DNA of 64,000 bases from the NCBI GenBank assembly GCA_963775955.1, contig CAVZKT010000005.1:7422-71421 (forward strand). The letters run 5' to 3'. The translations under genes were made by a program, and so were the position numbers. Source of the stretch: Candidatus Moraniibacteriota bacterium (GTDB taxonomy: Bacteria > Patescibacteriota > Minisyncoccia > Moranbacterales > UBA2206). Under the pieces are notes generated by a model. It ran no database searches. It was not told where the DNA came from and saw nothing but the letters and a program-made list of their open reading frames with translations. Shown piece by piece: positions 4,751 through 59,807 of the stretch (its first letter is position 1; each line of letters opens with the position of its first letter).

Positions 4751-5622
4751 TTATGCCGCCTGGGGCATGTTTTTGATTCCCCCGAAATCATAGCTTGTTA
4801 AGTCCCGCCTTTTTCGCGTCCAGAATAGCCTGCCATTGAAGCAAATATGGCGCCATAACATTGCGATATTCATTATCAGAAGCGCCGTGCAAATAAGTCG
4901 CGGTGTTTCCATAATGAATAACAATATTGGCCGCAATTATCTTGTTTTCATATTCCGCCATATATAATTTTAGAATTTCAGCCGGAATTGTTTCAAACAT
5001 TTTCCGGTAATAACTTTCTGGATGCAGATGTGATCCCATCCCGTTCGGCTGTAATTTTCACAAGCCTTAATAAATTCGTCAATATAAAATTTGGGATTTG
5101 TTCATTTGAATTTTCGATTTGTTTGATTGGGATTTGCCATTTGGGATTTGATCGCACAATAACTCTCTGTTTCTGTGCGAGTTTTATATTATATCTCGTC
5201 TTAGATTTCATCCCCGCCAACAATTCCTCTTCTGATCTTGTAATATCCATCATTAAAATTTCCCTCGGCTGCATATCATGTGGCGCCTTAGTAATTTTAT
5301 ACTTAGACCTTGGAGGTCTAAGTAAGTTTAAAACATTCTCACTCGCCGGCTCAATCCTAATCCAGCCGATATTGTTTTCTTTCGCCAAATTAATTAGCTT
5401 AGAAAATGAATTTGGAATTTTATTGGAAATTGGAAATTGGAAATTGGAAATTTGTATTACCGGTCCTCTGGGAACATAGAAATAACTGCCAACTATTGGT
5501 AGGCTGTGTTTAATTACGCTTGCGTAAAAGTTGTCGCCAGTAATGCAGTATGTTTTCCGCCCGACCGCTTCCTGAAACTTCCGCCATTCTTCAGATTGTA
5601 GAAATTCATTGATATTTTCCAT
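4751..5622 (-). CDS. FemAB-family peptidoglycan aminoacyltransferase, at least 2 frameshifts
   Basis: Three consecutive minus-strand ORFs (4993..5622, 4788..5039, 4751..4936) read as one FemAB-like protein (..YFYVPRGPV.., ..NTATYLHGASDNEYRN.., ..YDFGGI). Two heptamer-repeat insertions lie in frame. Confidence 0.7.
5089..5150. repeat. heptamer-type tandem repeat (ATTTGNN units) inside the FemAB-like CDS
   Basis: tttgggatttgttcatttgaattttcgatttgtttgattgggatttgccatttgggatttg, translated in frame as KWQIPIKQIENSNEQIPNF. Confidence 0.7.
5409..5455. repeat. GGAAATT x4 tandem heptamer inside the FemAB-like CDS
   Basis: ggaaattggaaattggaaattggaaattt read directly. It encodes ISNFQFPISNKIP in the minus-strand frame. 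Confidence 0.8.
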
Positions 5623-12170: not shown

Positions 12171-13850
12171 CTAAATCTCTCCCCAATTATCCCCAATTTT
12201 GACATTGGCGACCAGGGGAACTTTGAGTTTATAGACATTTTCCATAATCTCTTTTATTTTTTTTGCCACATCGCCGGCGATTCCTTCTTTCACCTCCAAA
12301 ATAATCTCGTCGTGAATCTGCAACAGTATTTTTACCCCGTTAAATTCCTGCGAAGCAGGACCGCCTCCTGCGGATTTAATGGGGCGAATATTCATGTTGC
12401 TTTTATATTCTTCAGAAACTTTTATCATAGCCAGTTTTACAATGTCGGCCGCCATGCCCTGGATCGGCATATTGATGGCCATGCGCTCCCCCGCGTTTTG
12501 CACCTGGAAATTGGGCGAGTTGATTTCCGGAATATAGCGGCGGCGGCCAAGCTCTGTTTCCACATAGCCGTTCTTTTTGGCAAATTCTTTGGTTTCGCGC
12601 ATATATTTCGCGATACCTTCAAATTTCTGCATATATTCATCAATAAATTTCCTGGCGTCATCCCTTTCGATGCCAGCCGCTTCGGAAAACCCGAAGACGC
12701 TCATGCCGTAAATCACTCCGAAATTCAACGCTTTGGCGCTGGAGCGCATTTTTTCCGTAACTTGGGATAGGGTTACTTTATTTATTTCCGCCGCAGTCGC
12801 CCGGTGCACATCCTCGCTCTTCAAAAATGTTTCAATCATTTTCTTGTCGCCGGAAACATGAGCCACCACGCGCAAATCGATCTGCGAATAATCGGCGCTG
12901 ACCAGTTTATATCCCCTTTCCGCCACAAAAGCCGTTCTTAATAATTGTCCCAAGTCCGTGCGGATGGGAATATTTTGCAAATTTGGGTCAGAAGAAGACA
13001 ATCTCCCTGTCGCGGTTACCGCCTGATTAAAAGTAGTATGAATTCTTTTGTTTTTATCCACTAATTTCGGCAGCGCGTCCAGATATGTTGTTTTTAATTT
13101 GAAAAGCTCGCGATATTCTTCGACTTTCTCGATAATTTTATGTTTTGGGCGAAGCTTGGCCAGTTCCGCCGAGGCCGTGGAAAAACCGGTCTTGATTTTT
13201 TTAATATCGCCGGTCGGAAGTTTTAATTTATCAAACAAAACGTCCGCCAGCTGCGAAGGAGAGTTAATATTGAATTCACATTTGCCCAGCTTGTGAATAT
13301 TCTTTTCCAGCCTGTTTATTGTCTCGGTTATTTTTTGGGAAATCCCTTTAAAAATAAGCGTGTTCAATTTAATGCCGGCAACTTCCATTTCGGCGAGAAT
13401 ATTGACCAGCGGCATTTCAATATTGTCAAGAACATACTTCAATGTTTTTCTCTCCTTAGTTAAGGAGAGATGCCCGGAGGGCAGAGAGGTTGTAGTTTCT
13501 TGTTCTTTAGAAATCTTCTCAATTTTTTCCTCATAAATATTTTTAAGCTTCCAGATATAATCCGCCGCCCGGCAGATTTTTTGCGCGACTGCTTCCGGTG
13601 TTTCAATTTCCAGCCCCAGCTGTCCGGTTTTAGTCTTGCCCTCAATTTCTTCGCCAATTTCTTCCAAGACCAAATTTTTAAATTCAATTTTTCCGCCCGG
13701 ATTCAAAACATAAGCAGCCAGCATTATGTCGTAATTATTGCCTTTTAATTCAATATCATATTTTTTCAGCACCTCATAAACATATTTCAAATCATACCCG
13801 ATTTTAGTAATATTCTCATCCTCTAAAATAATTTTAACTTTTTCCGCCAA
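12171..13850 (-). CDS. polA: DNA polymerase I, C-terminal fragment (rest of the exo-like domain plus polymerase domain)
   Basis: 559 aa, in the same frame as the upstream fragment, TTG start two codons after TGA-TAA. Motifs: DYSQIDLRV, KALNFGVIYG, QIHDEI. Confidence 0.9.
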   Translation of the reverse strand: MAEKVKIILEDENITKIGYDLKYVYEVLKKYDIELKGNNYDIMLAAYVLNPGGKIEFKNLVLEEIGEEIEGKTKTGQLGLEIETPEAVAQKICRAADYIWKLKNIYEEKIEKISKEQETTTSLPSGHLSLTKERKTLKYVLDNIEMPLVNILAEMEVAGIKLNTLIFKGISQKITETINRLEKNIHKLGKCEFNINSPSQLADVLFDKLKLPTGDIKKIKTGFSTASAELAKLRPKHKIIEKVEEYRELFKLKTTYLDALPKLVDKNKRIHTTFNQAVTATGRLSSSDPNLQNIPIRTDLGQLLRTAFVAERGYKLVSADYSQIDLRVVAHVSGDKKMIETFLKSEDVHRATAAEINKVTLSQVTEKMRSSAKALNFGVIYGMSVFGFSEAAGIERDDARKFIDEYMQKFEGIAKYMRETKEFAKKNGYVETELGRRRYIPEINSPNFQVQNAGERMAINMPIQGMAADIVKLAMIKVSEEYKSNMNIRPIKSAGGGPASQEFNGVKILLQIHDEIILEVKEGIAGDVAKKIKEIMENVYKLKVPLVANVKIGDNWGEI

Positions 13851-34009: not shown

Positions 34010-34084
34010 AACATAAGGCCGATAGCCTCAAATAAAAAAAGGCAGAAGGTCTGGATTGCTGTCCATGGCACTTTGCCAAAAGTA

Positions 34085-34219
34085 CTAATTTTTGTTTATA
34101 ATCCCCATGTGTTTTAACATATTTAATGCTTGTTCATGGTAATCGGCCCTCAGGATAGAAAGTTTGCCGCTATCCTGAATATCTTCGTAGTTAAAAAACA
34201 GGCAAACAGGATGTGCCAT
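34085..34219 (-). CDS. 44-aa hypothetical small protein
   Basis: AAAGGAGGATAT precedes the ATG at 34219. It reads MAHPVCLFFNYEDIQDSGKLSILRADYHEQALNMLKHMGIINKN. Too short for the ORF track. Confidence 0.35.
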   Translation of the reverse strand: MAHPVCLFFNYEDIQDSGKLSILRADYHEQALNMLKHMGIINKN

Positions 34220-34333
34220 ATATCCTCCTTTTTTTAAGAACTGCTTTTGTTTTTAGAATATTTTATTCTATATCCAGATTGATTTTATGTTAATCCCGAC
34301 CGCTTTTAGGGATTTTTTAATTTTCCAAAATCG

Positions 34334-35284
34334 TCACCCCAAAATCAGATTGAACAGATAGCCGGTAAGAATTATGCCCGCGCCGACAATGGCGGCAAAA
34401 ATGGCAATCAGCTTCAATTTCATGACTTTTTTGAGAATCAGAAACTCGGGAAAAGAAAGCGCTGTCACCGACATCATGAAAGCCAGACTTGTCCCCAGCG
34501 CCACGCCTTTTTCCGCAAAGACTTTAACGAGCGGAATTACTCCCGCCGCATTGGAATAAAGCGGAATGCCGATCAGCACCGCCAGCGGCACCGCGTACCA
34601 TTTGTCAGATGAAGCATACTGGGCCAAAAAATCAGTCGGCACATAGCCGTGGATCCAGGCGCCAATCCCGATTCCGGCCAGAATATAAATCCAGACTTTT
34701 TTTATTATTTGAAAAACATAACCGCGCGCATAAAGCGCCCTTTCTTTCCATCCCATGCTTTTTCCCGCTTCCTCCGTAAGCCGGCTGTTGAAAACAAAAT
34801 CCTCCACCAATTTTTCCATCTTTAACTTTCCGATTATTATTCCGGACAAAATCGCAATAACCAGGCCGCTCGCGATATAAATAGCCGCGATTTTCCAGCC
34901 GAAAAGTCCGAGTAAAAGCACCAGCGCCACTTCGTTGATCATGGGCGAAGCCACCAGAAAAGAAAACGTCACGCCCAGCGGCACGCCTGCTTCCAAAAAT
35001 CCGATGAAAAGCGTAATGGCCGAGCAGGTGCAAAAAGGCGTAAAAATTCCCAGGAGCGAAGCCAGAACGTTCCCCCAGTATCCCTTTCTGCCGGAAAGCA
35101 TATCTCTTATTTTTTCCTGCGGAAGATATGTGCGGATAATGGAAATGGAAAAGATTATAGCGGACAAAAGGAGGAAAATTTTGAGCGTGTCGTATATGAA
35201 AAAATTAACGGCATCGTAGAGATGCGTTGCGGTCGGGATTGAAAATATGTCCCGGGTGAGCCAGTCGGCAAAAGCTTGTATCAT
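34334..35284 (-). CDS. predicted permease (DUF318/ArsP-like family)
   Basis: 316 aa, polytopic. FTPFCTCSAITLFIGFLEAGVPLGVTFSFLVASPMINE is characteristic. Confidence 0.7.
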   Translation of the reverse strand: MIQAFADWLTRDIFSIPTATHLYDAVNFFIYDTLKIFLLLSAIIFSISIIRTYLPQEKIRDMLSGRKGYWGNVLASLLGIFTPFCTCSAITLFIGFLEAGVPLGVTFSFLVASPMINEVALVLLLGLFGWKIAAIYIASGLVIAILSGIIIGKLKMEKLVEDFVFNSRLTEEAGKSMGWKERALYARGYVFQIIKKVWIYILAGIGIGAWIHGYVPTDFLAQYASSDKWYAVPLAVLIGIPLYSNAAGVIPLVKVFAEKGVALGTSLAFMMSVTALSFPEFLILKKVMKLKLIAIFAAIVGAGIILTGYLFNLILG

Positions 35285-35340
35285 TTATTTTGTTCGAATA
35301 GTTTTATTATCTCCTATTAATTAATACATTTCTGTATTTC

Positions 35341-35462
35341 ACCCGCTTTTGGGGATTTTTCTTGCCCCGCCTGTCCCGTAGCGAGCGAAGCTCTGTTTCT
35401 GGGATTAAATGCGGTTTTATTTAATAGGGTGGAATTTCATCCCCCGGTGATGAAGGTGTAGG
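35341..35462. repeat. copy A of a ~125-nt hairpin-rich repeat
   Basis: Aligns over about 115 nt with 36574-36686. Four stems: GGGA/TCCC, GAGC/GCTC, ATTAAAT/ATTTAAT, TTCATC/GATGAA. Confidence 0.75.
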
Positions 35463-35482
35463 ATTTAATTACGTAATTAAAT
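35463..35482. repeat. 20-bp perfect palindrome ATTTAATTACGTAATTAAAT
   Basis: Read directly. Same TACGTA-centred family as 15051-15082 and 40044-40067. Confidence 0.8.
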
Positions 35483-35517
35483 TATAACACCAAAACAATA
35501 TAAAAAAAGCCGCTACC

Positions 35518-36450
35518 TCAATGGGTAGCGGTAGGACAACTTAAAAATTTGCCCTGAAAATTACATGGAAGCTGGCAATATCGACTTTCTTTAAAATACG
35601 GCCAACTGTCAATTATTTTTTGACGCTCTATGTCAGTTTGAATTAAATCACGCATTTGTACAGCCTTTTGCAAAACCTTTCGAAATTTATCCATACATGG
35701 TGCGCCTGGCAACGGTCTTACACCCAGTTCTCCTCCCAGAAAATATTTTTCCAGTTTTGGATCGAGCGGTTTCACACTGCACTGATTGACTCTCAACATG
35801 CCAAATCCCTGTTTGAGAGTTAAACGCGGCCAATTGCGACCTATCACCCTAATGGCGCTTTGGGGCCATAATGTTATTGCCATTCTATAATCCAATAAAT
35901 AATCCCCTCTTCCTCCCCGATAGAATTTGCGCCAGTCTGTGTAGTCTTGGAAAATAACTTCGCCATAGAAATGGTAGGAATTGCCTGAGTCGATTATGAG
36001 GCCTGGCCCTGTTTTTAAGAGTTTCAAGGCCAGCTCGACCCTCTTCAAATTCCTTGGAGAGATAGAGCGGTTGAAGTCTATAAGCTTGAGCCAAAGCATC
36101 TTGCCATTCTTCAGCTTAACCTTGGAAACGAACCCGAATGACTCCTCATCAATGTAGCCGACATAGGCACACATTCCACCTTTCTTCTTCCTGATTTTTT
36201 CCTTGTAATCATGGAATTTTTCTTCCAGATAACTGCAAAGGTTCACTTCTGACAGCAGTTTTGGAACTCTGACTTCAAACACGGGATGAGAGGGAAAATG
36301 TTCAATGGGTTCGTATTCTCTTTGATCATCCCCCGCTCTCATAAAGGGCTTGAACATAGCAAAATAAAAAGACTTTATGTCTGGAAACCAAGTCAGGTAA
36401 TGCTCGATAATCAATCCTGCGATCATATTTTCCTCCTTTTTAAGGTTCAA
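35518..36450 (-). CDS. hypothetical protein with an AEP/primase-polymerase-like motif order (tentative)
   Basis: 310 aa. WLKLIDFN, then about 22 aa, then LIIDSGNSYHFYG, then ..LLDYR..IRVIGRN. This resembles the DxD / sGxGxH / hD..R.pG order of archaeo-eukaryotic primase-like enzymes. The gene is flanked by repeat copies A and B. Confidence 0.5.
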   Translation of the reverse strand: MNLKKEENMIAGLIIEHYLTWFPDIKSFYFAMFKPFMRAGDDQREYEPIEHFPSHPVFEVRVPKLLSEVNLCSYLEEKFHDYKEKIRKKKGGMCAYVGYIDEESFGFVSKVKLKNGKMLWLKLIDFNRSISPRNLKRVELALKLLKTGPGLIIDSGNSYHFYGEVIFQDYTDWRKFYRGGRGDYLLDYRMAITLWPQSAIRVIGRNWPRLTLKQGFGMLRVNQCSVKPLDPKLEKYFLGGELGVRPLPGAPCMDKFRKVLQKAVQMRDLIQTDIERQKIIDSWPYFKESRYCQLPCNFQGKFLSCPTATH

Positions 36451-36573
36451 CTTTTTGATTAATTCTTACACCGATTTTCCCGGTTGTCAAGACAAAAAAA
36501 ACAGCCTTCCCGGGATTTTTTTGGATTTCATTTTTAACATAATAAAACGGTCGTTGGGAAATGATAAATTTGT

Positions 36574-36686
36574 TTTGCAGGATTTTTCTTGCCCCGCCTG
36601 TCCTGTAGCAAGCCATGCTTTACTTCTGGGATTAAATAGGAATTTATTTAACTCGGGGTGGAAGTACCTACTGAGGTACCTACGTA
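36574..36686. repeat. copy B of the hairpin-rich repeat
   Basis: Same order of stems as copy A, with compensatory differences: CAGGA/TCCTG, AAGC/GCTT, TTAAATA/TATTTAA, GTACCT/AGGTAC. Confidence 0.75.
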
Positions 36687-36782
36687 GATAAAATTTTTGA
36701 GGTAAATAATTAATTATATAACTTTATTATAGCATTATAAAAAGGGCGGTGAAGTTCATCGCCCTTTTTCAAGAAAGAAGTG

Positions 36783-36995
36783 CTATTCAACATGCTCAAG
36801 GTTTGCCACGTTCCAGATCGCATATGAATATTTGCCTTTGTTCTTGCCTGTTTTAGTCCTGAAGCGAACCTGAACGCACCGTCTCGCACATCGTAGTAGT
36901 TTTCCCTTTTCCCCTCTGACTTCGCCAACGATGCCGGAAATGTTGTTGCACATTTTCATTCCCGGCTTAAGATTTGATTTTCTCGCCATTGTCAT
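36783..36995 (-). CDS. 70-aa basic hypothetical protein
   Basis: AAAAGGAGGC SD directly before the ATG at 36995. The overlapping ORF 36710..36928 in another frame is less likely. Confidence 0.45.
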   Translation of the reverse strand: MTMARKSNLKPGMKMCNNISGIVGEVRGEKGKLLRCARRCVQVRFRTKTGKNKGKYSYAIWNVANLEHVE

Positions 36996-37023
36996 GCCTC
37001 CTTTTATAAAGAACTGCTGTTTC

Positions 37024-37380
37024 TCACGGCAGATAGTACATCAAACCGCATCCGGAGCAAACATGAAAAGCGTAATAAACGTCCAGTATGCCGGAAACGC
37101 GCCGGATTTTCATCATCCTTTTCAGTTTAGCTCCGCAGCAGGAAGACCTCTGTTCCGTTTCTTCAAGCATTTTGCTGGGGCGTACGCTCGGGACTGAAAA
37201 GCCGGCTGCGAGATGATCTGCCAGTGCCTTTTTGGCTTTCCGGCGATTATCGATTTCGCAATCAGGACCGCAGTCCCAGCATCCATAGTCATGAGATTTT
37301 TCACATCTGCACAGATCCACGCGAGCATCGCAGACTTTGCAGAAAAAACGCTCTACATCATTTCTTGCCAGCACTTCCAT
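37024..37380 (-). CDS. Cys-rich (double zinc-ribbon-like) hypothetical protein
   Basis: 118 aa. AAAGGAGG SD. Cys clusters CKVC..CRC..CWDC..C and CC..CSGC. Confidence 0.5.
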   Translation of the reverse strand: MEVLARNDVERFFCKVCDARVDLCRCEKSHDYGCWDCGPDCEIDNRRKAKKALADHLAAGFSVPSVRPSKMLEETEQRSSCCGAKLKRMMKIRRVSGILDVYYAFHVCSGCGLMYYLP

Positions 37381-37405
37381 AAAAAACCTCCTTTAATTAT
37401 TTTAT

Positions 37406-37825
37406 TTATTTCAGAAGTTTGCATGGCTGATCTAACATAAAAAGAGATGCGAGCCATTCCTCCGGGGTGTTTAGGCCCGTTCTTTCTTTAAAACTCCCGA
37501 CGATAGACAAAATTTCTGCCGCCGAATACATCTCTCCGACGATAAGGCCGTATTTTGTTTGACATAGGCCATCCCTGACTGAAATTGCGTTACTGCACGC
37601 TTCTTCTCTTTTCGGGCATATTACGTAAGGATTATCGCAAATATCATCCAGCCCGCCAACAATAAGAATCCTTTCTGATTGATTGAATATGACAGAGGCG
37701 TGAATCATGGCAGTGTAATTTTGAAATTGTTCGCCGTATTCCCTGAACAGATCCTCAAAATCTGAGAATCCCATAAGAAAAGACTGAGCAATATTGGATA
37801 TATGATGCGGCCTTAATTTAATCAT
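37406..37825 (-). CDS. DUF1284-like protein
   Basis: The MIKLRPHH N-terminus and overall size fit DUF1284. AAAGGAGATAG SD. Confidence 0.55.
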   Translation of the reverse strand: MIKLRPHHISNIAQSFLMGFSDFEDLFREYGEQFQNYTAMIHASVIFNQSERILIVGGLDDICDNPYVICPKREEACSNAISVRDGLCQTKYGLIVGEMYSAAEILSIVGSFKERTGLNTPEEWLASLFMLDQPCKLLK

Positions 37826-37869
37826 CTTCTATCTCCTTTATCTATAATTTTGTAAAGATCTGATAATAA

Positions 37870-37898
37870 AATATAGCAGGACAAATGCTTCCTGTCAA
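37870..37898 (-). promoter_or_regulatory. sigma-70-type promoter for the DUF1284 gene cluster
   Basis: On the minus strand: TTGACA (37898-37893), a 17 nt spacer, then TATATT (37875-37870). Confidence 0.5.
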
Positions 37899-38019
37899 GT
37901 TAATTTAAAGTCACTTTATGGAAATTGGTATAATTTATCCCAAAATTCTATATATTCCCGCTTGCCTTTTTTGCCCGTCTATGGAGGGTCAGGATTTTTT
38001 AGTAAGTAATTAATTGTGA

Positions 38020-38418
38020 TTATTTCCAATTCAGATAAGCAATAGTGAGCTGTAAGACGGTTGCGAAGGCAACCCAGACAAGATACGGGACTTGGACGCA
38101 GGCGATCCATTTGGCATGCGGATAAATGGCAATCATCGCCCAAATGAGTGTCGCGAGTACGAGCAGGATATCAATCGCCGCCAAAAAATTATTTTGCAAG
38201 CCGAATTGCAAGGGCGTAAAAGCAAAGTTAAAAATCAGATTAAGAATAAATGGCAGAGCCACAATAAACGCCAGCTGTCCCTTGGCGGTTTTATAAAATA
38301 CTGTGCCGAAAGAGATGGCGATTAGAATGTAAAGAAAGGTCCATACAGGCCCAAATAGCCAACTAGGCGGCGCCCAATCAGGTTTTATGAGTTGTTGGTA
38401 CCAGGAATATGTGTCCAT
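38020..38418 (-). CDS. tspO: TspO/MBR tryptophan-rich sensory protein
   Basis: 132 aa. WYQQLIKPDWAPPSWLFGPVWTFLY and five TM helices. Confidence 0.85.
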   Translation of the reverse strand: MDTYSWYQQLIKPDWAPPSWLFGPVWTFLYILIAISFGTVFYKTAKGQLAFIVALPFILNLIFNFAFTPLQFGLQNNFLAAIDILLVLATLIWAMIAIYPHAKWIACVQVPYLVWVAFATVLQLTIAYLNWK

Positions 38419-38507
38419 ATTTTTATTTAAGAATTTTATAACTTTTCAAACCGCCTTTTCAGGATTTTTTTGAATTTTATGCTCCTGAATCCGTAAATCT
38501 TTTCAGC

Positions 38508-38936
38508 CTATTTTCTGTAACTCCGTATTATTTCCAAACAATCTTCAAATGCCTCTGCTTTGCCACCAATAAATTCGTTTAACCCGAATTCTTCAATATT
38601 CTCACTCTCCCGTGGTTCTTCCTTCCATTCTTTGCGATAATTTTTCACTAATTTTGCAATATGCTTCTCTAAAGATTCGCCGGTAATTTTTTCCAGAAAT
38701 CCTTTTGCCATCAACTGAATAGTGTTTTCATATAAATTCTGTAAATTTTCCCACAATTCAAACGTCTGGTATCTATTGTCGGATTTTATCATTTTCCATT
38801 CTTCCGGTTCAATTTCCACAAAATCATCGTCTTCTTCGGTATATTCCTTACACATCACTAGAAACGGAAAGTAAAAGTTTTTGTGCCGATCTAAATATTT
38901 CAAAATTTTAATCGCCAGTTCTCTTGAAATTTTCAT
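38508..38936 (-). CDS. hypothetical acidic protein
   Basis: 142 aa, no recognisable motif. Lies directly downstream of the DpnI-like gene. Confidence 0.45.
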   Translation of the reverse strand: MKISRELAIKILKYLDRHKNFYFPFLVMCKEYTEEDDDFVEIEPEEWKMIKSDNRYQTFELWENLQNLYENTIQLMAKGFLEKITGESLEKHIAKLVKNYRKEWKEEPRESENIEEFGLNEFIGGKAEAFEDCLEIIRSYRK

Positions 38937-38994
38937 AAAATTGACCAGATTAATGTTTATTTCTGATCAATTGTTGATCGTTTCCAAGCTTGTG

Positions 38995-39806
38995 TCAAAT
39001 AGATAATTTATATTTGCCCGGGCTAACAAATGCAAGATAGCCTTTGTCGCGTAAAACTTGCAATTGCTGCCGCAATTTGTCTTTAATAAAATTATTGCCC
39101 GGATGTTTGATTTTCAATTCTCTTTCAAAAACATAAACTTCATCCAGAGAAAATTCTTTTTTGCCAATTTTGTCGATACAATTCATAGTGTCCAGAAGCC
39201 AACCCTTAATTCTGGTTTTTTTACTTTTTTCAAAAATGCGGTTTTTTGCCATTTCCGCAACACTTCTTTTTTAGAAGTCTCCTTACCATTTTCGACATAA
39301 AAAATTTTGCCCGAAGCTGGAATCTTAGAAAATAAAATATTAGAACCAATCCAACCAGCCCTTCGAGCATTTTCTGCCAGCATCTTTCTTTTCTCAATAA
39401 TTTCCGGAATAAAAAAATATTTAGGAACTACAAAAAAATCATTTACAAGTAACGCTGCCAAATAACCCATAAAAAAGAAATGTGGTTTTTGCCTAGAATT
39501 TAATCTTTCTATCATTTTTGAATAAGCGCCAGCTGGAATCTTCTTTCCTAGTTTTCCTTTTTTGGATTTTAACTCAAAATCTTCGGAACATTTCTTGCAA
39601 TAAAAATCTGCGACGGGCTTGTTATTTGCATAACTTTTAATTCTGTCTCCACAATTTGGACAGAAAATTTCTTGTTCAACCCAACTCTCAGTCAAAACTC
39701 TTGCAATCTGAGATTGACTTGTATATTTTATAGCTAAATTTTTATCTAAAGTTAATTCCATACAAAATATTAGACTTCCCCGCCTTGTGGATAACTCCAG
39801 TACCAA
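38995..39806 (-). CDS. DpnI-family methyl-directed (G-m6A-TC type) restriction endonuclease, one frameshift in an A-run
   Basis: MELTLDKNLAIKYTSQSQIARVLTESWVEQEIFCPNCG..PVADFYCKKCSEDFELKSKKG..ARRAGWIGSNI matches the DpnI catalytic domain almost motif for motif. ORF 38995..39252 (..IKGWLLDTMNCIDKIGKKEFSLDEVY..LRQQLQVLRDKGYL) is the DpnI winged-helix domain. The shift is near 39215-39235. The likely ATG is at 39761. Confidence 0.85.
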
Positions 39807-39836
39807 AGCGAGGCGCTTGACACGGGGCAGGCTTTA

Positions 39837-40016
39837 TTATTTACTCCAATAATCTCTGATTAAAATTCCCTTACTGACCCTGGTGACTTTCACCCTCTGG
39901 CGTTCGCGCCAGCCTAAGTCTTTAGCCATTTCAGCCGGCAGAGTTACCGCCAGACTCGTCTTCCCCACCCGGGTTATTTTCCTAACATTTTTTTCTTCAA
40001 TTTTTCTCCTGGTCAT
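39837..40016 (-). CDS. AbrB/MazE/SpoVT-type small DNA-binding protein, paralog 1
   Basis: 59 aa: MTRRKIEEKNVRKITRVGKTSLAVTLPAEMAKDLGWRERQRVKVTRVSKGILIRDYWSK. It has the looped-hinge-helix pattern (G..S..VTLP......LG). Below the ORF-track size cutoff. Confidence 0.7.
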   Translation of the reverse strand: MTRRKIEEKNVRKITRVGKTSLAVTLPAEMAKDLGWRERQRVKVTRVSKGILIRDYWSK

Positions 40017-40043
40017 AAATATATAATTAGTATTTATTAGTAA

Positions 40044-40067
40044 GTATTATAATACGTATTATAATAC
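40044..40067. promoter_or_regulatory. 24-bp perfect palindrome with embedded TATAAT boxes upstream of AbrB-like paralog 1
   Basis: GTATTATAATACGTATTATAATAC, 28 nt upstream of the ATG at 40016. Candidate promoter and operator. Confidence 0.55.
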
Positions 40068-40144
40068 CCCAGAAGTAAAGCATCTCAGTAGTACAACAGG
40101 GTTGACTACGGGACAAGTAGCTTACTACGGGGCAGGCGGGGTAA
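40067..40144. repeat. copy C (inverted, rearranged) of the hairpin-rich repeat
   Basis: CCCAGAAGTAAAGCAT...CTACGGGGCAGGCGGGG equals the reverse complement of the copy B core, with an expanded AAGC...GCTT stem. It is followed at 40137-40162 by a fragment matching the 3' end of AbrB-like paralog 2. Confidence 0.65.
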
Positions 40145-40165
40145 ACTTTGACGCGCGTGGCTTGA

Positions 40166-40456
40166 TTAAACAACGTTAAACTTTTTATTAAGCGATTCTT
40201 GCAGCATTTCCAGAGTAACTTTTACAGAAGGATTGCTGGTGTTTTTTAGCAGCAGCTTTTCTCCGTATTTTTCCAATAAAGGCGTCAAAAACTCATCTCC
40301 CCATGAAGGAGAAAAGGTTAATACTCCCGCAAAATCAATCTCAACGGCTTCGTCATTTTTCACATTTTTCAGCGCCGGCTGGAACGCCAAAAACGCCTCC
40401 TTCCCGGTCTGGCGGGAGATAAGCGTTGTGCCGAATTTTTTTAGCTCGATAATCAT
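40166..40456 (-). CDS. STAS-like protein (DUF4325 type)
   Basis: 96 aa. VEIDFAGVLTFSPSWGDEFLTPLLEKYG matches the DUF4325/anti-sigma-antagonist-like pattern. It starts 10 nt after the upstream ATPase gene. Confidence 0.7.
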   Translation of the reverse strand: MIIELKKFGTTLISRQTGKEAFLAFQPALKNVKNDEAVEIDFAGVLTFSPSWGDEFLTPLLEKYGEKLLLKNTSNPSVKVTLEMLQESLNKKFNVV

Positions 40457-40466
40457 AGTTAAATAG

Positions 40467-41189
40467 TTAATAAGAGATTAGGGCTAAACAGCCGCGAAAG
40501 CTGTCTTTTGAATCCGTTATTTTTAAATCAGGGCTCCCTCCGTTCAATTGCAGTTGGGCGTTGCCAGTCTGAAAAAATAAATTGATCGGATTTTGGGAAA
40601 TAATCTTTCTGACAAATTTCAATCCGTTCCCCCTGTTTTCCGGAGAGCGCCCGGAAATTATTTCAGTGAATGCCACTTTTAATGCTTGCACGTGGTTTTT
40701 CAAGTCGGGCTTGGCTCTTTTTAAGGTTTCTAAAATGCCCAGCCCCCGGTCCGCCAAAACTATCTGCTTTTTATTCAGGTCATAGCCAAAAAATACTCCG
40801 GGTGTATCCGGCCATTGCCCCAGATTGTGATCAAAGGAATTATTGCCGATTTCCCCGGCCATGGACACAATCAAGGAAAATATTTCCTTGGTCTTTTGAT
40901 TTTGCATCAGCAGGTTTTCCATTCTCACCAAGCGCGACTGAAAAACCGCGCTATTTTGGCAATACAGTTCTTCTGAAAAATTTTTTCCGGCAATGACCCA
41001 GGCACGGGCCATTTGCAACAGATCGCTTAAAAAAAATTCTATGTCCTCTTTTCTGTAATAGCGATGGCTTTTAGGTTGTTTTCTGATCGATAAAAGGCGT
41101 CCGGCTTCGTCCCACCGCCTAAGCGTCATAATGGAAACGCCCAATATTCTGGCTGCCTCACTGATAGGTATTAAATCATTTTTTTCCAT
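40467..41189 (-). CDS. MerR-type HTH fused to a GHKL (histidine-kinase-like) ATPase domain
   Basis: 240 aa. The N-terminus IPISEAARILGVSIMTLRRWDEAGRL is a MerR HTH. GHKL boxes follow: EIGNNSFDHN (N box), ADRGLGI (G1), NRGNGLKFV (G2). Confidence 0.75.
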   Translation of the reverse strand: MEKNDLIPISEAARILGVSIMTLRRWDEAGRLLSIRKQPKSHRYYRKEDIEFFLSDLLQMARAWVIAGKNFSEELYCQNSAVFQSRLVRMENLLMQNQKTKEIFSLIVSMAGEIGNNSFDHNLGQWPDTPGVFFGYDLNKKQIVLADRGLGILETLKRAKPDLKNHVQALKVAFTEIISGRSPENRGNGLKFVRKIISQNPINLFFQTGNAQLQLNGGSPDLKITDSKDSFRGCLALISY

Positions 41190-41209
41190 AAAATTTTCCC
41201 CCTACAGTC

Positions 41210-41237
41210 ATAATAGCAAATCTATACATTTTGTCAA
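41210..41237 (-). promoter_or_regulatory. candidate promoter flanked by ATGTATAG direct repeats
   Basis: On the minus strand: TTGACA (41237-41232), a 16 nt spacer, then TATTAT (41215-41210). ATGTATAG occurs on both sides of the -35 element. Confidence 0.35.
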
Positions 41238-41337
41238 TAAAGCTATACATTCTATTTTTAAATGCCTATTTTAAGCCATTTTTTACTCCTATAATCCCTG
41301 ATTTGTAACCCGCCCTGATTAAATAAAACATCTCTAT

Positions 41338-41496
41338 TTAACGGGGTAAACCTTTGATGCGCGTGACTTTCACTCTCTGTTTTTCGCGCCAGCCTAAATC
41401 CTTAGCCATTTCAGCCGGCAGAGTTACCGCCAAACTCGTCTTCCCCACCCGTGTTATTTTCCTTATATTTTTTTCCTCAATTTTTCTCCTGGTCAT
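41338..41496 (-). CDS. AbrB/MazE/SpoVT-type small DNA-binding protein, paralog 2
   Basis: 52 aa: MTRRKIEEKNIRKITRVGKTSLAVTLPAEMAKDLGWREKQRVKVTRIKGLPR. Nearly identical to paralog 1 for about 46 codons. The palindrome TAATACGTATTA lies at 41508-41519 upstream. Confidence 0.65.
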   Translation of the reverse strand: MTRRKIEEKNIRKITRVGKTSLAVTLPAEMAKDLGWREKQRVKVTRIKGLPR

Positions 41497-41651
41497 ACTC
41501 CTTATTTTAATACGTATTATAATACTTACCCTACCCCCATCCTACCCCATTAAAATCTTACAGTAAAGATCTAACGGGGCAAGCGCCAAAAAGACCCGGA
41601 AGTCAAATGAAAAAGGGAGCGTATTAAGATTGCTCCCTTCTTAAATATTAA

Positions 41652-42605
41652 TCAATTTTTTAAACTCTCTATTGACCTCCTGGCAATCGGAACCATTTCC
41701 TTAAAGTTTTTGCTCATATACCAGCCGATGGGTTTATGCGACAGATCATAGTAAGCAAAATACAAACTTGCTCCCAGCTTTTCATAATCTTTCGGCTTCA
41801 TGGCCCTCCATCCTCTTCTGCCCTCAAAAAAAATGCAAAGCATGGCGCAATAATCAGCTCCCTCTTTTATGATCAGCGGATTTTCATCTTCAAAACCTTT
41901 AATGAAATAATCAACGGCATAATAAGACTGCGGTATTTTGGCCATCATGCCCGACATCATCTGCGCCAGATAAAGACCGCACTGGAACAAATCTGTGCGG
42001 ATCATTTTTTTCTTAAGAAGCACGGAACAAATCTTGGCCGCCATAAGTTCTTTAAAATTCCCGCGCATGCAAAAAATTCCGTTTCGCTCCTCTCCGAAAA
42101 TCCTTTCTTGAAGCCCGACAGCCTGCTTAAGAAGATTATTAATATCATTTCCGCTAAAATCTTCTGCTTTTTCTCCCGCTTTTTATTGAAAAAGGCAATT
42201 TGCCAATGTTTCGGGGGGAGAACCTTATCCCGCCCTGTGTATAGCCCCGTCGGAGCCTCGTGCTCGTATAAATGCCCGGCGATCGCTATCGCTGAGAGGA
42301 GTTCGGAATTCGCGCACCATTCTTTTTTTTCCCGAACGGCTTATGCCGTGCACGATCTGCCAGAAGCGCCGTTCCTTTTTCTGCTCACGATGCCTTTTCG
42401 CCCGAGCTTCTTCAAAAAGAACAAGCTGAACATCCGGAAAATATTCCGGAGCAGCCGGAATGTTTTCCACATTAATAAACTTGCCATGATTAACATAATA
42501 ACCGCCCCCGGCAATGATACCCTCATGGATCCTGTCTCCCAATTCTTTCGAGATCTCAAAATCTTTAACAAACGACCTTCCATCCGGATAACCATCATTA
42601 CTCAT
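41652..42605 (-). CDS. hypothetical protein, either two genes or one gene broken by a frameshift (A8 run) and an in-frame TAA
   Basis: ORF 42225..42605 has a strong SD (AAAGGAGGTTATTGC-ATG). After ggaaaaaaaag (about 42325) the reading continues in another frame to a TAA at about 42195. The same frame then stays open into ORF 41652..42068. Confidence 0.4.
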
Positions 42606-42664
42606 GCAATAACCTCCTTTTTTTAAAAAAATTGGTTTTTATAGAACAAAAATTTTAACTTTTG

Positions 42665-42693
42665 ATTATATCAAACATAAGTTGTCTTGTCAA
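42665..42693 (-). promoter_or_regulatory. consensus sigma-70 promoter (TTGACA-17-TATAAT)
   Basis: On the minus strand: TTGACA 42693-42688, spacer 42687-42671, TATAAT 42670-42665. GGCGGGT x2 lies immediately upstream. The start codon is at 42605. Confidence 0.6.
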
Positions 42694-42700
42694 TACCCGC

Positions 42701-42799
42701 CTAAACCCGCCTATGTTCTTCTAAAAAATCCTTAATCCTTTGGAATATTTTTTCATGTCCTTTTGAATTTGGATGCAGCCCGTCTGTTAAATCATTAAT
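42701..42799 (-). pseudogene. C-terminal remnant of an SGNH/GDSL hydrolase gene
   Basis: INDLTDGLHPNSKGHEKIFQRIKDFLEEHRRV* contains the block V DxxH motif (DGLHPN). It is preceded by an in-frame stop and no upstream part is present. Confidence 0.6.
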
Positions 42800-42812
42800 T
42801 TACTTTTTCCAA

Positions 42813-43283
42813 TTAGTCCAAATCGCCTGTCGGCAGGCCTTTGTACGGACCGGGCAGTTTATCGCGTATCTTCCTTATCTCTTCCTTGGTTGGTTTCTCA
42901 TCGGCAGGACTTTTTTCAATATCCCTGTTTTCCTCTTTTCCGAACAAATGCAAATTTTTTTCTTTAATTTCGACGTCCATGACTAATGAGCTTAAACTAT
43001 ATCCTTTCTGCAAAAGTTTCTTCACCAGTATTTTTTTAACTGAATAAAAATCTTCCTCCTCGGAATCCCCAATAAACTTTTTGGTCAGCTCAATTATCTG
43101 ATTGCTATTTAATTCATCTTCTCTTTTTATTTTTTTCTTTTTTTCTTCTTCGTCAATAAATTTAATAATCCTATTTTCCAGGGTATTCTCCCTGGTTTCC
43201 TTTTCCAGCTCTTCCGGCGTTTTTCCCCGAGCCTTGAAGCGCTCTTTATCATCGCCATATAAATTCAGTTGCTCATATTTCAT
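42813..43283 (-). CDS. Lys/Glu-rich hypothetical protein
   Basis: 156 aa, charged and probably helical. It begins 17 nt after the stop of the 591-aa protein gene. Confidence 0.45.
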   Translation of the reverse strand: MKYEQLNLYGDDKERFKARGKTPEELEKETRENTLENRIIKFIDEEEKKKKIKREDELNSNQIIELTKKFIGDSEEEDFYSVKKILVKKLLQKGYSLSSLVMDVEIKEKNLHLFGKEENRDIEKSPADEKPTKEEIRKIRDKLPGPYKGLPTGDLD

Positions 43284-59737: not shown

Positions 59738-59807
59738 TTGAGGTAGTAAAAATTTCCCCCAGTTAAATATTCCGCGAAGCGGAAGTTAACGGGGTAAATA
59801 AAAAAAT

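Follow-up and report, generated by a model that had tools for sequence, protein, structure and literature searches.

Two direct repeats, here called copies A and B, lie in a window of 64,000 nucleotides from a Candidatus Moraniibacteriota bacterium (GenBank assembly GCA_963775955.1, contig CAVZKT010000005.1), and are probably copies of a mobile palindromic DNA element that resembles repetitive extragenic palindromes (REPs) and bacterial interspersed mosaic elements (BIMEs), or MITEs (miniature inverted-repeat transposable elements). Related copies are spread across genomes beside unrelated genes, occupy sites that are empty in relatives, lie within genes and antisense to them, nest in one another, carry duplicated flanks and show no strand bias. 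These features point to a DNA element, selfish DNA that has spread, rather than to a dedicated RNA gene. An earlier reading made from the letters alone (the sequence-only reading) had proposed a structured RNA or a recombination element. Its structural conservation is statistically strong for the central hairpin, and the evidence fits the mobile or recombination half of that proposal and speaks against a dedicated, gene-specific RNA.

Copies A and B are composite palindromic repeats

The window belongs to contig C5 of its own genome (G000), an 818-kb assembly of five contigs that is 88.6% complete and encodes a transfer-messenger RNA, 47 tRNA genes and a class A penicillin-binding protein (PBP); relatives have genomes of 0.6-1.4 Mb. 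We compared it chiefly with a genome of the same genus (G001), and searched for further copies with a covariance model, R1, built from an alignment of 30 copies. Copies A and B align without gaps over a 72-nt core (35353-35424 against 36580-36651) at 85% identity, in keeping with their earlier description as direct repeats, and on the - strand their similarity runs from TTCCACCC through to CAAGAAAAATCC. Copy C, previously taken as an inverted copy, is indeed an inverted relative, with 25-nt arms that are complementary to A and to B at 84%, and a single 16-nt arm that is 100% complementary to B. R1 matches the window five times, always between 35367 and 41586 and on mixed strands (A and B on -, the others on +). 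Two GC-rich fragments reported at 39822-39835 and 41574-41587 are present, and are the 3' ends of weaker family members. The repeat copies of the window, with an AT-type palindrome among them, are as follows.

35349..35432, - strand: copy A, composite element (repeat comparison and sequence reading)
35367..35407, - strand: core hairpin of copy A, CCCAGAAACAGAGC-ttc-GCTCGCTACGGGACAGGC (R1, 51.1 bits, E 1.5e-11)
36575..36662, - strand: copy B, composite element with the architecture of A (repeat comparison and sequence reading)
36594..36634, - strand: core hairpin of copy B, with distal stem AAGC/GCTT (R1, 48.4 bits, E 8.2e-11)
39792..39834, + strand: degenerate family member that ends in ACGGGGCAGGC and abuts the stop codon of an AbrB/MazE-like gene (R1, E 0.016)
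40064..40146, + strand: copy C, a B-like core hairpin (AAGC..GCTT) with a nested hairpin, followed by GGGGTAAAC (R1, 46.7 bits, E 2.3e-10, over the 76-nt span 40064-40139)
41313..41351, + strand: AT-type palindrome CCCTGATTAAATA..TATTTAACGGGGTAAAC, overlapping the stop of the second AbrB/MazE-like gene copy
41542..41586, + strand: weak family member, the short palindrome CCCCATTAAAATCTT..AAGATCTAACGGGGCAAGC, with a terminator-like hairpin after it (R1, E 0.078)

The core of A and B is a single 41-nt hairpin, CCCAG(T/A)AG..variable stem..CTACGGGGCA(A/G)GC, located at the 3' end of an AT-rich palindrome. On the - strand, copy A consists in order of TTCCACCC, an AT hairpin (ATTAAAT..ATTTAAT), the GC hairpin, and GGGGCAAG with a AAAAATCCCC tail; A and B are each preceded by a terminator-like hairpin and a TATAAT-like box, and the next gene follows 57-150 nt on. 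The same order of parts recurs in a genome of the same order (L005, the place of L054) and in G001 (L062), where ACCCC, an AT-rich hairpin GTTAAAT..ATTTAA(T/C), CCCAGAAG, the GC hairpin, CTACGGGACAGGC and GGGGCAAG succeed one another. The loop of the AT hairpin, which corresponds to the third of the four stems first proposed, holds additional hairpins in both, CCCGCACAC..GTGTGCGGGCAAAG in L054 and TCTGCC..GGCAGA in G001. A BLAST-type search of 41 genomes with copy B returned mainly noise and one true homologue (G026, L005, the same place as L054). A palindrome, AATTACGTAATTAA, adjoins hairpin copies in three genomes (window 35466-35482; L062:1121-1137; the 5' flank of L080).

The modules of A and B belong to palindrome families found throughout G000, which start with CCCC and end with GGGG followed by CAAG, CAGG, TAAA or TGAA, and A and B are best read as an AT-type palindrome carrying a GC hairpin inserted just before the closing GGGG. 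Copy C may be understood in similar terms: its 38-nt expansion, regarded previously as an enlarged stem, is instead another member of this hairpin family that sits in the first one's loop, as seen both in the sequence and in the span of the R1 match. As to the other proposed stems, the fourth had been presented as one shape built from different bases, but A and B are not homologous there and it therefore cannot count as covariation; the first is a possible alternative pairing seen in A and B only.

The central hairpin is conserved by compensatory change

Thirty distinct hairpin copies were aligned with MAFFT without regard to structure, and pairing was assessed for a 13-pair structure that was chosen after viewing the sequences. 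The columns CCC..G.A..A and CTAC..G..A..C are invariant, and the middle of the hairpin differs in almost every copy and stays self-complementary. The second proposed stem (GAGC/GCTC in A, AAGC/GCTT in B) thus generalises to a hypervariable distal stem that is complementary in all 30 homologues. Paired cells amount to 93.0%, compared with 78.0% in shuffled alignments, and cells with double changes number 56 against 14.7, a count reached by none of 500 shuffles. The covariation score is 0.403, compared with 0.113 in shuffles and 0.006-0.103 when the partners are slid. Double changes occur at six stem pairs, and pair 5-44 goes from C-G to U-A in A, B and three other copies. A conserved mismatch and one bulged base are further features of the hairpin. 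CTAC, which reads GTAG on the opposite strand, is present in 30/30 aligned copies and is base-paired inside the stem, not an unpaired terminal tag.

Six G-U pairs were counted in the alignment and eight A-C pairs; since G-U pairs do not exceed A-C pairs, neither strand is favoured. Single-sequence folding of A, B and C on both strands gave unremarkable z-scores of -0.37 to -2.36, and support for the structure rests on comparison between copies, not on folding energy. The 64-kb window contains no Rfam match at the gathering threshold, and a permissive scan of 34500-42500 yielded no credible family, with a best sub-threshold E-value of 1.1.

The hairpin is widespread and adjoins unrelated genes

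Further copies, for which the sequence-only reading had proposed a covariance-model search, were found. Within G000, R1 detects 11 copies at E<0.01 on 4 contigs; together with the six stem pairs at which both partners change, this gives interspersed repeats with complementary stem sub-families, as in GTAG-tagged REPs, which are mostly intergenic. A pattern search of the order-level set gave 63 matches in 40/301 genomes, against 3 matches for the reversed control. In a sample of the phylum, R1 matched 21/151 genomes, with 1-5 copies in 20 of the 150 other than G000, and in five genomes of other phyla it found 41, 10, 6, 1 and 0 copies. Matches to a 17-base pattern in metagenome-assembled genomes of Desulfobacterales, Bacteroidales, Calditrichota, Cloacimonadota and Doudnabacteria correspond to the nested junction CTAC / CCCAG..CTACRGGGCAGGC / GGGGCAAGC. 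Among 34 pattern loci drawn from all bacteria the covariance model recovered the full hairpin in 15; matches in Pseudomonas, Streptomyces and Paenibacillus contain no full hairpin by this model and look like chance. An association with particular downstream genes, which had also been suggested as a check, was not found, as copies adjoin unrelated genes across genomes and phyla.

Evidence for insertion

Presence/absence polymorphism at orthologous sites was observed for family members on contig C2, at the start of a gene for a 603-aa protein, and in lepA. In G000, two tandem hairpins occupy C2:47592-47684, and both are missing between the corresponding flanks in G001, which also lacks a 77-nt palindrome of C2 (47835-47911) that in G000 is situated on the TTGA of a TTGACA..TATACT promoter-like pair. 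In both of these genomes the start of the 603-aa gene is split by a 119-nt palindrome, with ATGAA before it and TGAATTC after it, and the orthologues in G002 and G033 are without it and read ATGAATTC. The lepA gene of G000 encodes 32 extra in-frame residues, which comprise the hairpin (coding strand) and a duplicated local linker of ~30 nt. These residues are skipped in the protein match to 11/14 relatives, and the DNA of the site in G001, G004 and G028 holds a 10-12-codon linker and no hairpin. Another copy lies antisense within a 209-aa open reading frame (ORF) with a thymidylate-kinase match, and nested copies are represented by C, by L054 and by A and B themselves. At A and B, contigs of four DNA sequencing runs contained no structural variant, their cover being patchy and none spanning the stretch.

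Two of these genes gave additional observations. lepA carries two in-frame, translated palindromic elements (G000:C3:31948-31989 and ~C3:32340-32395; L100, L143), of which the second, ~24 aa, is missing in 4/14 relatives (G006, G007, G008 and G026) and apparently present in G001. Orthologues of the 603-aa gene in G003, G011 and G013 give split matches with open frames up to 1026 aa, which suggests large insertions, perhaps intein-like.

In 9/31 loci the sequence that abuts the hairpin on its 5' side is found again 1-94 nt downstream (local score of at least 12.5), compared with 1/30 displaced controls. These duplications are variable, at 10-55 nt, and have no fixed length; none is clear at A, and B has a weak one. 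In three genomes of two families the duplicated flank comprises the first 13-14 codons of uvrB with the preceding bases, and the same holds for uvrA in one genome. At these loci (uvrB in L078, L079 and L082; uvrA in L087) the codons and 10-17 nt upstream are doubled around the hairpin, and the upstream copies differ between genomes mostly at synonymous positions. Other duplicated flanks involve the 3' ends of tRNA genes and, by eye, a DnaA-box region in L094 (which scored <12.5).

Related palindromes occupy gene starts and promoter-like boxes

About 55 palindromes of 50-140 nt in G000 have the form CCCCGTTAGA..TCTAACGGGG or CCCCGCAC..GTGCGGGG (for instance C1:43588-43690, C1:5335-5453 and C3:44902-45001, with short members in the window at 12335-12384 and 59758-59798). 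They have terminal inverted repeats, and 29/55 are bordered by identical 4-nt flanks, mostly TGAA or TTGA. In 21 of the 55 the element gives rise to a GTG with which an ORF of 100 codons or more begins, and in 14/21 an ATG lies just before the element. These 21 sit exactly on a gene start, in the arrangement ATGAA/element/TGAA by which the start codon becomes GTG, and others sit on the TTGA of -35-like TTGACA boxes. Considered together with the hairpins, the elements are 41-140 nt long with arms that pair, and reading frames through the copies are not conserved, so that they have the small size, non-coding character and inverted repeats of MITEs.

In a tRNA cluster at G000:C2:41850-46300 (L101), a wealth of 5' and 3' fragments of tRNAs is interspersed with CCCCGCAC..GTGCGGGG palindromes, and the cluster contains a small ORF, GIY-YIG nuclease-like by eye, between a truncated and an intact tRNA-Val(tac). 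Hairpins around tRNA fragments had suggested split or nested tRNA introns here. This was rejected because the acceptor halves do not match each other, and the region is a patchwork of tRNA fragments and palindromes.

Relationship to known repeat systems

The closest parallels are with the GTAG-tagged REPs. These short palindromic units (20-40 bp) have a terminal GTAG, stems that occur as complementary variants and self-complementary loops; they are inserted in other palindromes, form clusters that take flanking DNA with them, and also occur within genes, above all in uvrA, uvrB and further genes of DNA repair and at N-termini (Di Nocera et al., 2013; PMC3733652). The hairpin described here shares with GTAG REPs and BIMEs its short GC-rich form, invariant GTAG/CTAC, complementary stem variants, self-complementary loops, units inside palindromes, carried flanks, and intragenic copies including those at uvrA and uvrB. 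It differs in that its GTAG/CTAC is paired within the stem instead of forming an unpaired terminal tag, in its CCCC/GGGG clamp and conserved CARGC tail, in its ~1-10 copies per small genome and in the ~20 nt kept across phyla. The comparison with the 24 GTAG families was made by their description. The same paper also describes genes for tyrosine transposases between long inverted repeats with a GGGGWSAS motif in common (PMC3733652). No gene for a REP-associated tyrosine transposase (RAYT) flanked by the hairpin units described here was found.

In the RAYT system itself, non-autonomous hairpin repeats known as REPINs (REP doublets forming hairpins) are believed to depend for their movement on a Y1 HUH transposase that acts in trans (Bertels & Rainey, 2011; PMC3116915). 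The resemblance lies in the hairpin-forming repeats and in two RayT-like proteins encoded by G000. The difference is that the genes for these two proteins lie between other palindromes of their own, ACTTAGACC..GGTCTAAGT and TTCCTAGAAC..GTTCTAGGAA. A RAYT gene flanked by the same repeat units, the arrangement known as a REPtron, was encountered neither at these two genes nor at ten Y1 loci elsewhere. The element is therefore REP- or MITE-like in behaviour and is not filed under the RAYT system. The two genes (G000:C1:261919-262581, L058; C2:378-1025, L057) are each flanked and interrupted by their own 23-nt palindrome, of which G000 has 11 and 7 copies, with a copy of the first in the window near 5303-5330; together they make up small REPtron-like units distinct from the A/B hairpin.

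Rickettsia palindromic elements (RPEs) insert in frame in protein genes and at gene starts, where they are tolerated, as summarised in the GTAG paper (PMC3733652). On that account they are similar to our elements as palindromic repeats of small genomes within coding genes and at gene starts, and dissimilar in that there is no sequence relationship and that host lineage, hairpin tag and tail differ.

Resemblances extend beyond the REP-like repeats. MITEs are small non-coding elements with terminal inverted repeats and short target duplications. The CCCCGTTAGA..TCTAACGGGG palindromes are like them in their terminal inverted repeats, in the identity of their 4-nt flanks and in having relatives with empty sites. 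The differences are that no parent insertion sequence was found and that the GC hairpin has no target duplication of fixed length.

A working model and the evidence that weighs against it

Taken together, A and B would each be a palindromic composite, similar to a BIME or to a nested MITE, in which a CCCC..GGGG AT palindrome of the genome-wide kind bears, before its terminal GGGG, the 41-nt GTAG/CTAC-tagged GC hairpin CCCAG(T/A)AG-stem-loop-stem-CTACGGGGCARGC. Both parts would represent small non-coding mobile DNA families that have inserted in intergenic spacers, gene starts, tRNA ends and coding sequence of G000 and its relatives. The stems would keep pairing because the element needs its hairpin, which would fold, most likely as single-stranded DNA or a cruciform, for recognition and copying by an enzyme acting in trans. 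Since A and B are direct repeats of 85% identity on either side of a single orphan gene, they could in addition mediate the loss or duplication of that gene by recombination.

Several observations weigh against this model. A cognate transposase was looked for and not found: both RayT-like genes of G000 have other palindromes at their sides, and the ten Y1-transposase loci, from five genomes outside the Candidate Phyla Radiation, had only isolated single-motif matches within ~1.5 kb and no hairpin unit. Y1 genes are present in 29/40 genomes with the hairpin and in 121/261 others, a modest difference among genomes that are interrelated. For a REP family, the 11 copies of G000 (E<0.01) are a low number, and exact conservation of ~20 nt across phyla is unusual for REPs. 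There is no empty site for A or B themselves, because the island in which they lie has no counterpart in G001. Finally, A, B and the G001 composite run in the direction of neighbouring genes and each lie after a terminator and before the next gene, a position that would suit an RNA role.

A less conventional account, to which we assign a small chance, is that the CCCAG..CTACGGGGCARGC hairpin represents an undescribed class of element found across phyla and recombined as folded single-stranded DNA, with a logic like that of integron attC sites and with neither an integron integrase nor a RAYT. Such elements may insert with long, variable target duplications of 10-55 nt and favour gene ends, namely start codons, tRNA 3' ends and, in uvrA and uvrB, the first 13-14 codons; they may insert into their own copies; and their hairpins may mark gene-cassette junctions in hypervariable islands of ultra-small bacteria.

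A dedicated structured RNA is improbable, whether as a cis-regulatory leader or as a small RNA for which the TATAAT-like boxes upstream of A and B would drive transcription on the - strand. The covarying central stem would be expected of such an RNA, as would the placement of A, B and the G001 homologue, which run with their neighbours after terminator-like hairpins and TATAAT-like sequences; a terminator-like hairpin also follows the element in L054 and at window 41542-41640. However, the element has no Rfam match and an ordinary folding energy, the genes downstream are unrelated (an ArsP permease, a primase-like protein and others), and C and the two weaker copies oppose the direction of neighbouring genes. 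Copies inside lepA and antisense in the 209-aa ORF, the empty sites in G001 and the nesting are likewise left unexplained by an RNA, and the six G-U pairs do not exceed the eight A-C pairs. The element may still have a secondary role at the RNA level, as a terminator or stabiliser.

It is also doubtful, to a high degree, that the hairpins are attC-like sites, that is, cassette boundaries of an integron-like array recombined as folded single-stranded DNA by a site-specific recombinase. Integrons have an IntI integrase with attI close by, or an array of sites that share one orientation, and in attC sites the architecture is R''/L''..L'/R', with RYYYAAC and GTTRRRY at the ends. The points of likeness are that structure is kept more than sequence, the hairpin has extrahelical bases (a bulged base and a conserved mismatch), and copies are concentrated at junctions of accessory genes in a hypervariable island. 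Fragments of gene ends also adjoin hairpins, such as an AbrB-like 3' end by C and the ends of uvrA, uvrB and tRNA genes in relatives. Against this, the window's contig encodes no integrase, PF00589 matches being confined to contig C2; orientation in the island is mixed (A and B on -, C and others on +); and no RYYYAAC/GTTRRRY boundary pair, and so no R'/R'' boxes, was seen in attC arrangement in the window copies. The AAC/GTT-like motifs that are there run GTTAAAT..ATTTAAC, the reverse of attC, and are part of the AT palindrome, and many copies lie outside cassette arrays (in lepA and beside tRNA genes).

We regard as very remote the idea that a 1.2-kb mini-replicon encoding the primase-like protein has integrated here, with A and B for its attL and attR and the composite as its origin or attachment site. 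The direct repeats do flank the single orphan gene at a distance of 1227 bp, the gene is confined to G000 among 301 genomes of the order, and its six relatives are on contigs of 1.2-4.5 kb. Short contigs are, however, usual in the collection that holds those six relatives, a profile scan found 28 distant loci of such genes in metagenomes, none of them with the hairpin, and the distribution of the hairpin family far exceeds that of the gene; metagenome and viral contigs, scanned at the protein level for the mini-replicon, gave nothing. A diversity-generating retroelement was rejected, as differences between A and B are not adenine-specific and no reverse transcriptase gene is present among the scanned ORFs next to A and B.

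Implications of a probable mobile palindromic element

Because hairpins of this kind covary so well, they are prone to be taken for riboswitch or small RNA candidates, and A and B illustrate how the two can be told apart. Gene starts are easily mis-called, since related palindromes of G000 sit exactly on start codons. Genomes of only 0.8 Mb in ultra-small bacteria bear active-looking selfish palindromes that enter coding sequence, tRNA ends and DNA-repair genes. That one type of hairpin, near-identical over ~20 nt, is common to Desulfobacteria, Bacteroidales and other phyla implies a widely shared recognising enzyme or transfer between phyla. Searches of the literature on repeats in Patescibacteria and the Candidate Phyla Radiation gave no description of such repeats among the matches listed, and those by motif sequence string and on tRNA introns and repeats in these bacteria returned nothing relevant.

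The variable island and its genes

All five hairpin copies of the window fall within a strain-specific island, whose main features are given below.

34010..43120: strain-specific variable island with all five hairpin copies of the window (synteny with G001)
34334..35284, - strand: ArsP_1 permease gene, downstream of A (Pfam, E 3.3e-75)
35521..36426, - strand: gene for a 302-aa protein similar to archaeo-eukaryotic primases (AEP-like), between B and A (Pfam PF24387, E 3.2e-8)

Synteny with G001 breaks off where the PBP gene ends in its stop codon (34009) and is restored near 43123, and G001 holds 1.27 kb in its place; the ArsP gene of G001 is at a different locus. The AEP-like gene was found in 1/301 genomes of the order (G000 itself) and has six relatives among 5.8 billion proteins. 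From this rarity and the confinement of all five copies to the island it follows that the hairpins mark junctions in the island, between horizontally acquired genes; they may drive the shuffling there, or may simply build up where insertions do little harm. Nearly all genes around A and B are on the - strand, and they also include those for a DUF1284 protein, TspO and a DpnI-like nuclease. Further neighbours are two AbrB/MazE-like genes and a DUF4325 gene adjoining a 240-aa ORF at 40467-41189.

The two AbrB/MazE-like genes (39883-40017 and 41363-41497) are 92% identical over 135 nt, and a palindrome, TATTATAATACGTATTATAATA, lies upstream of each (40040-40066 and 41503-41529); a third gene of this type is represented by a 3' end fragment beside copy C (40137-40170). 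A promoter-like repeat, AAAAAAATCC(C/T)G..AAGGC.., occurs upstream of island genes at 36499-36531 and 38448-38480 of the window and at four places in G001, so that this block is common to both species although the genes differ.

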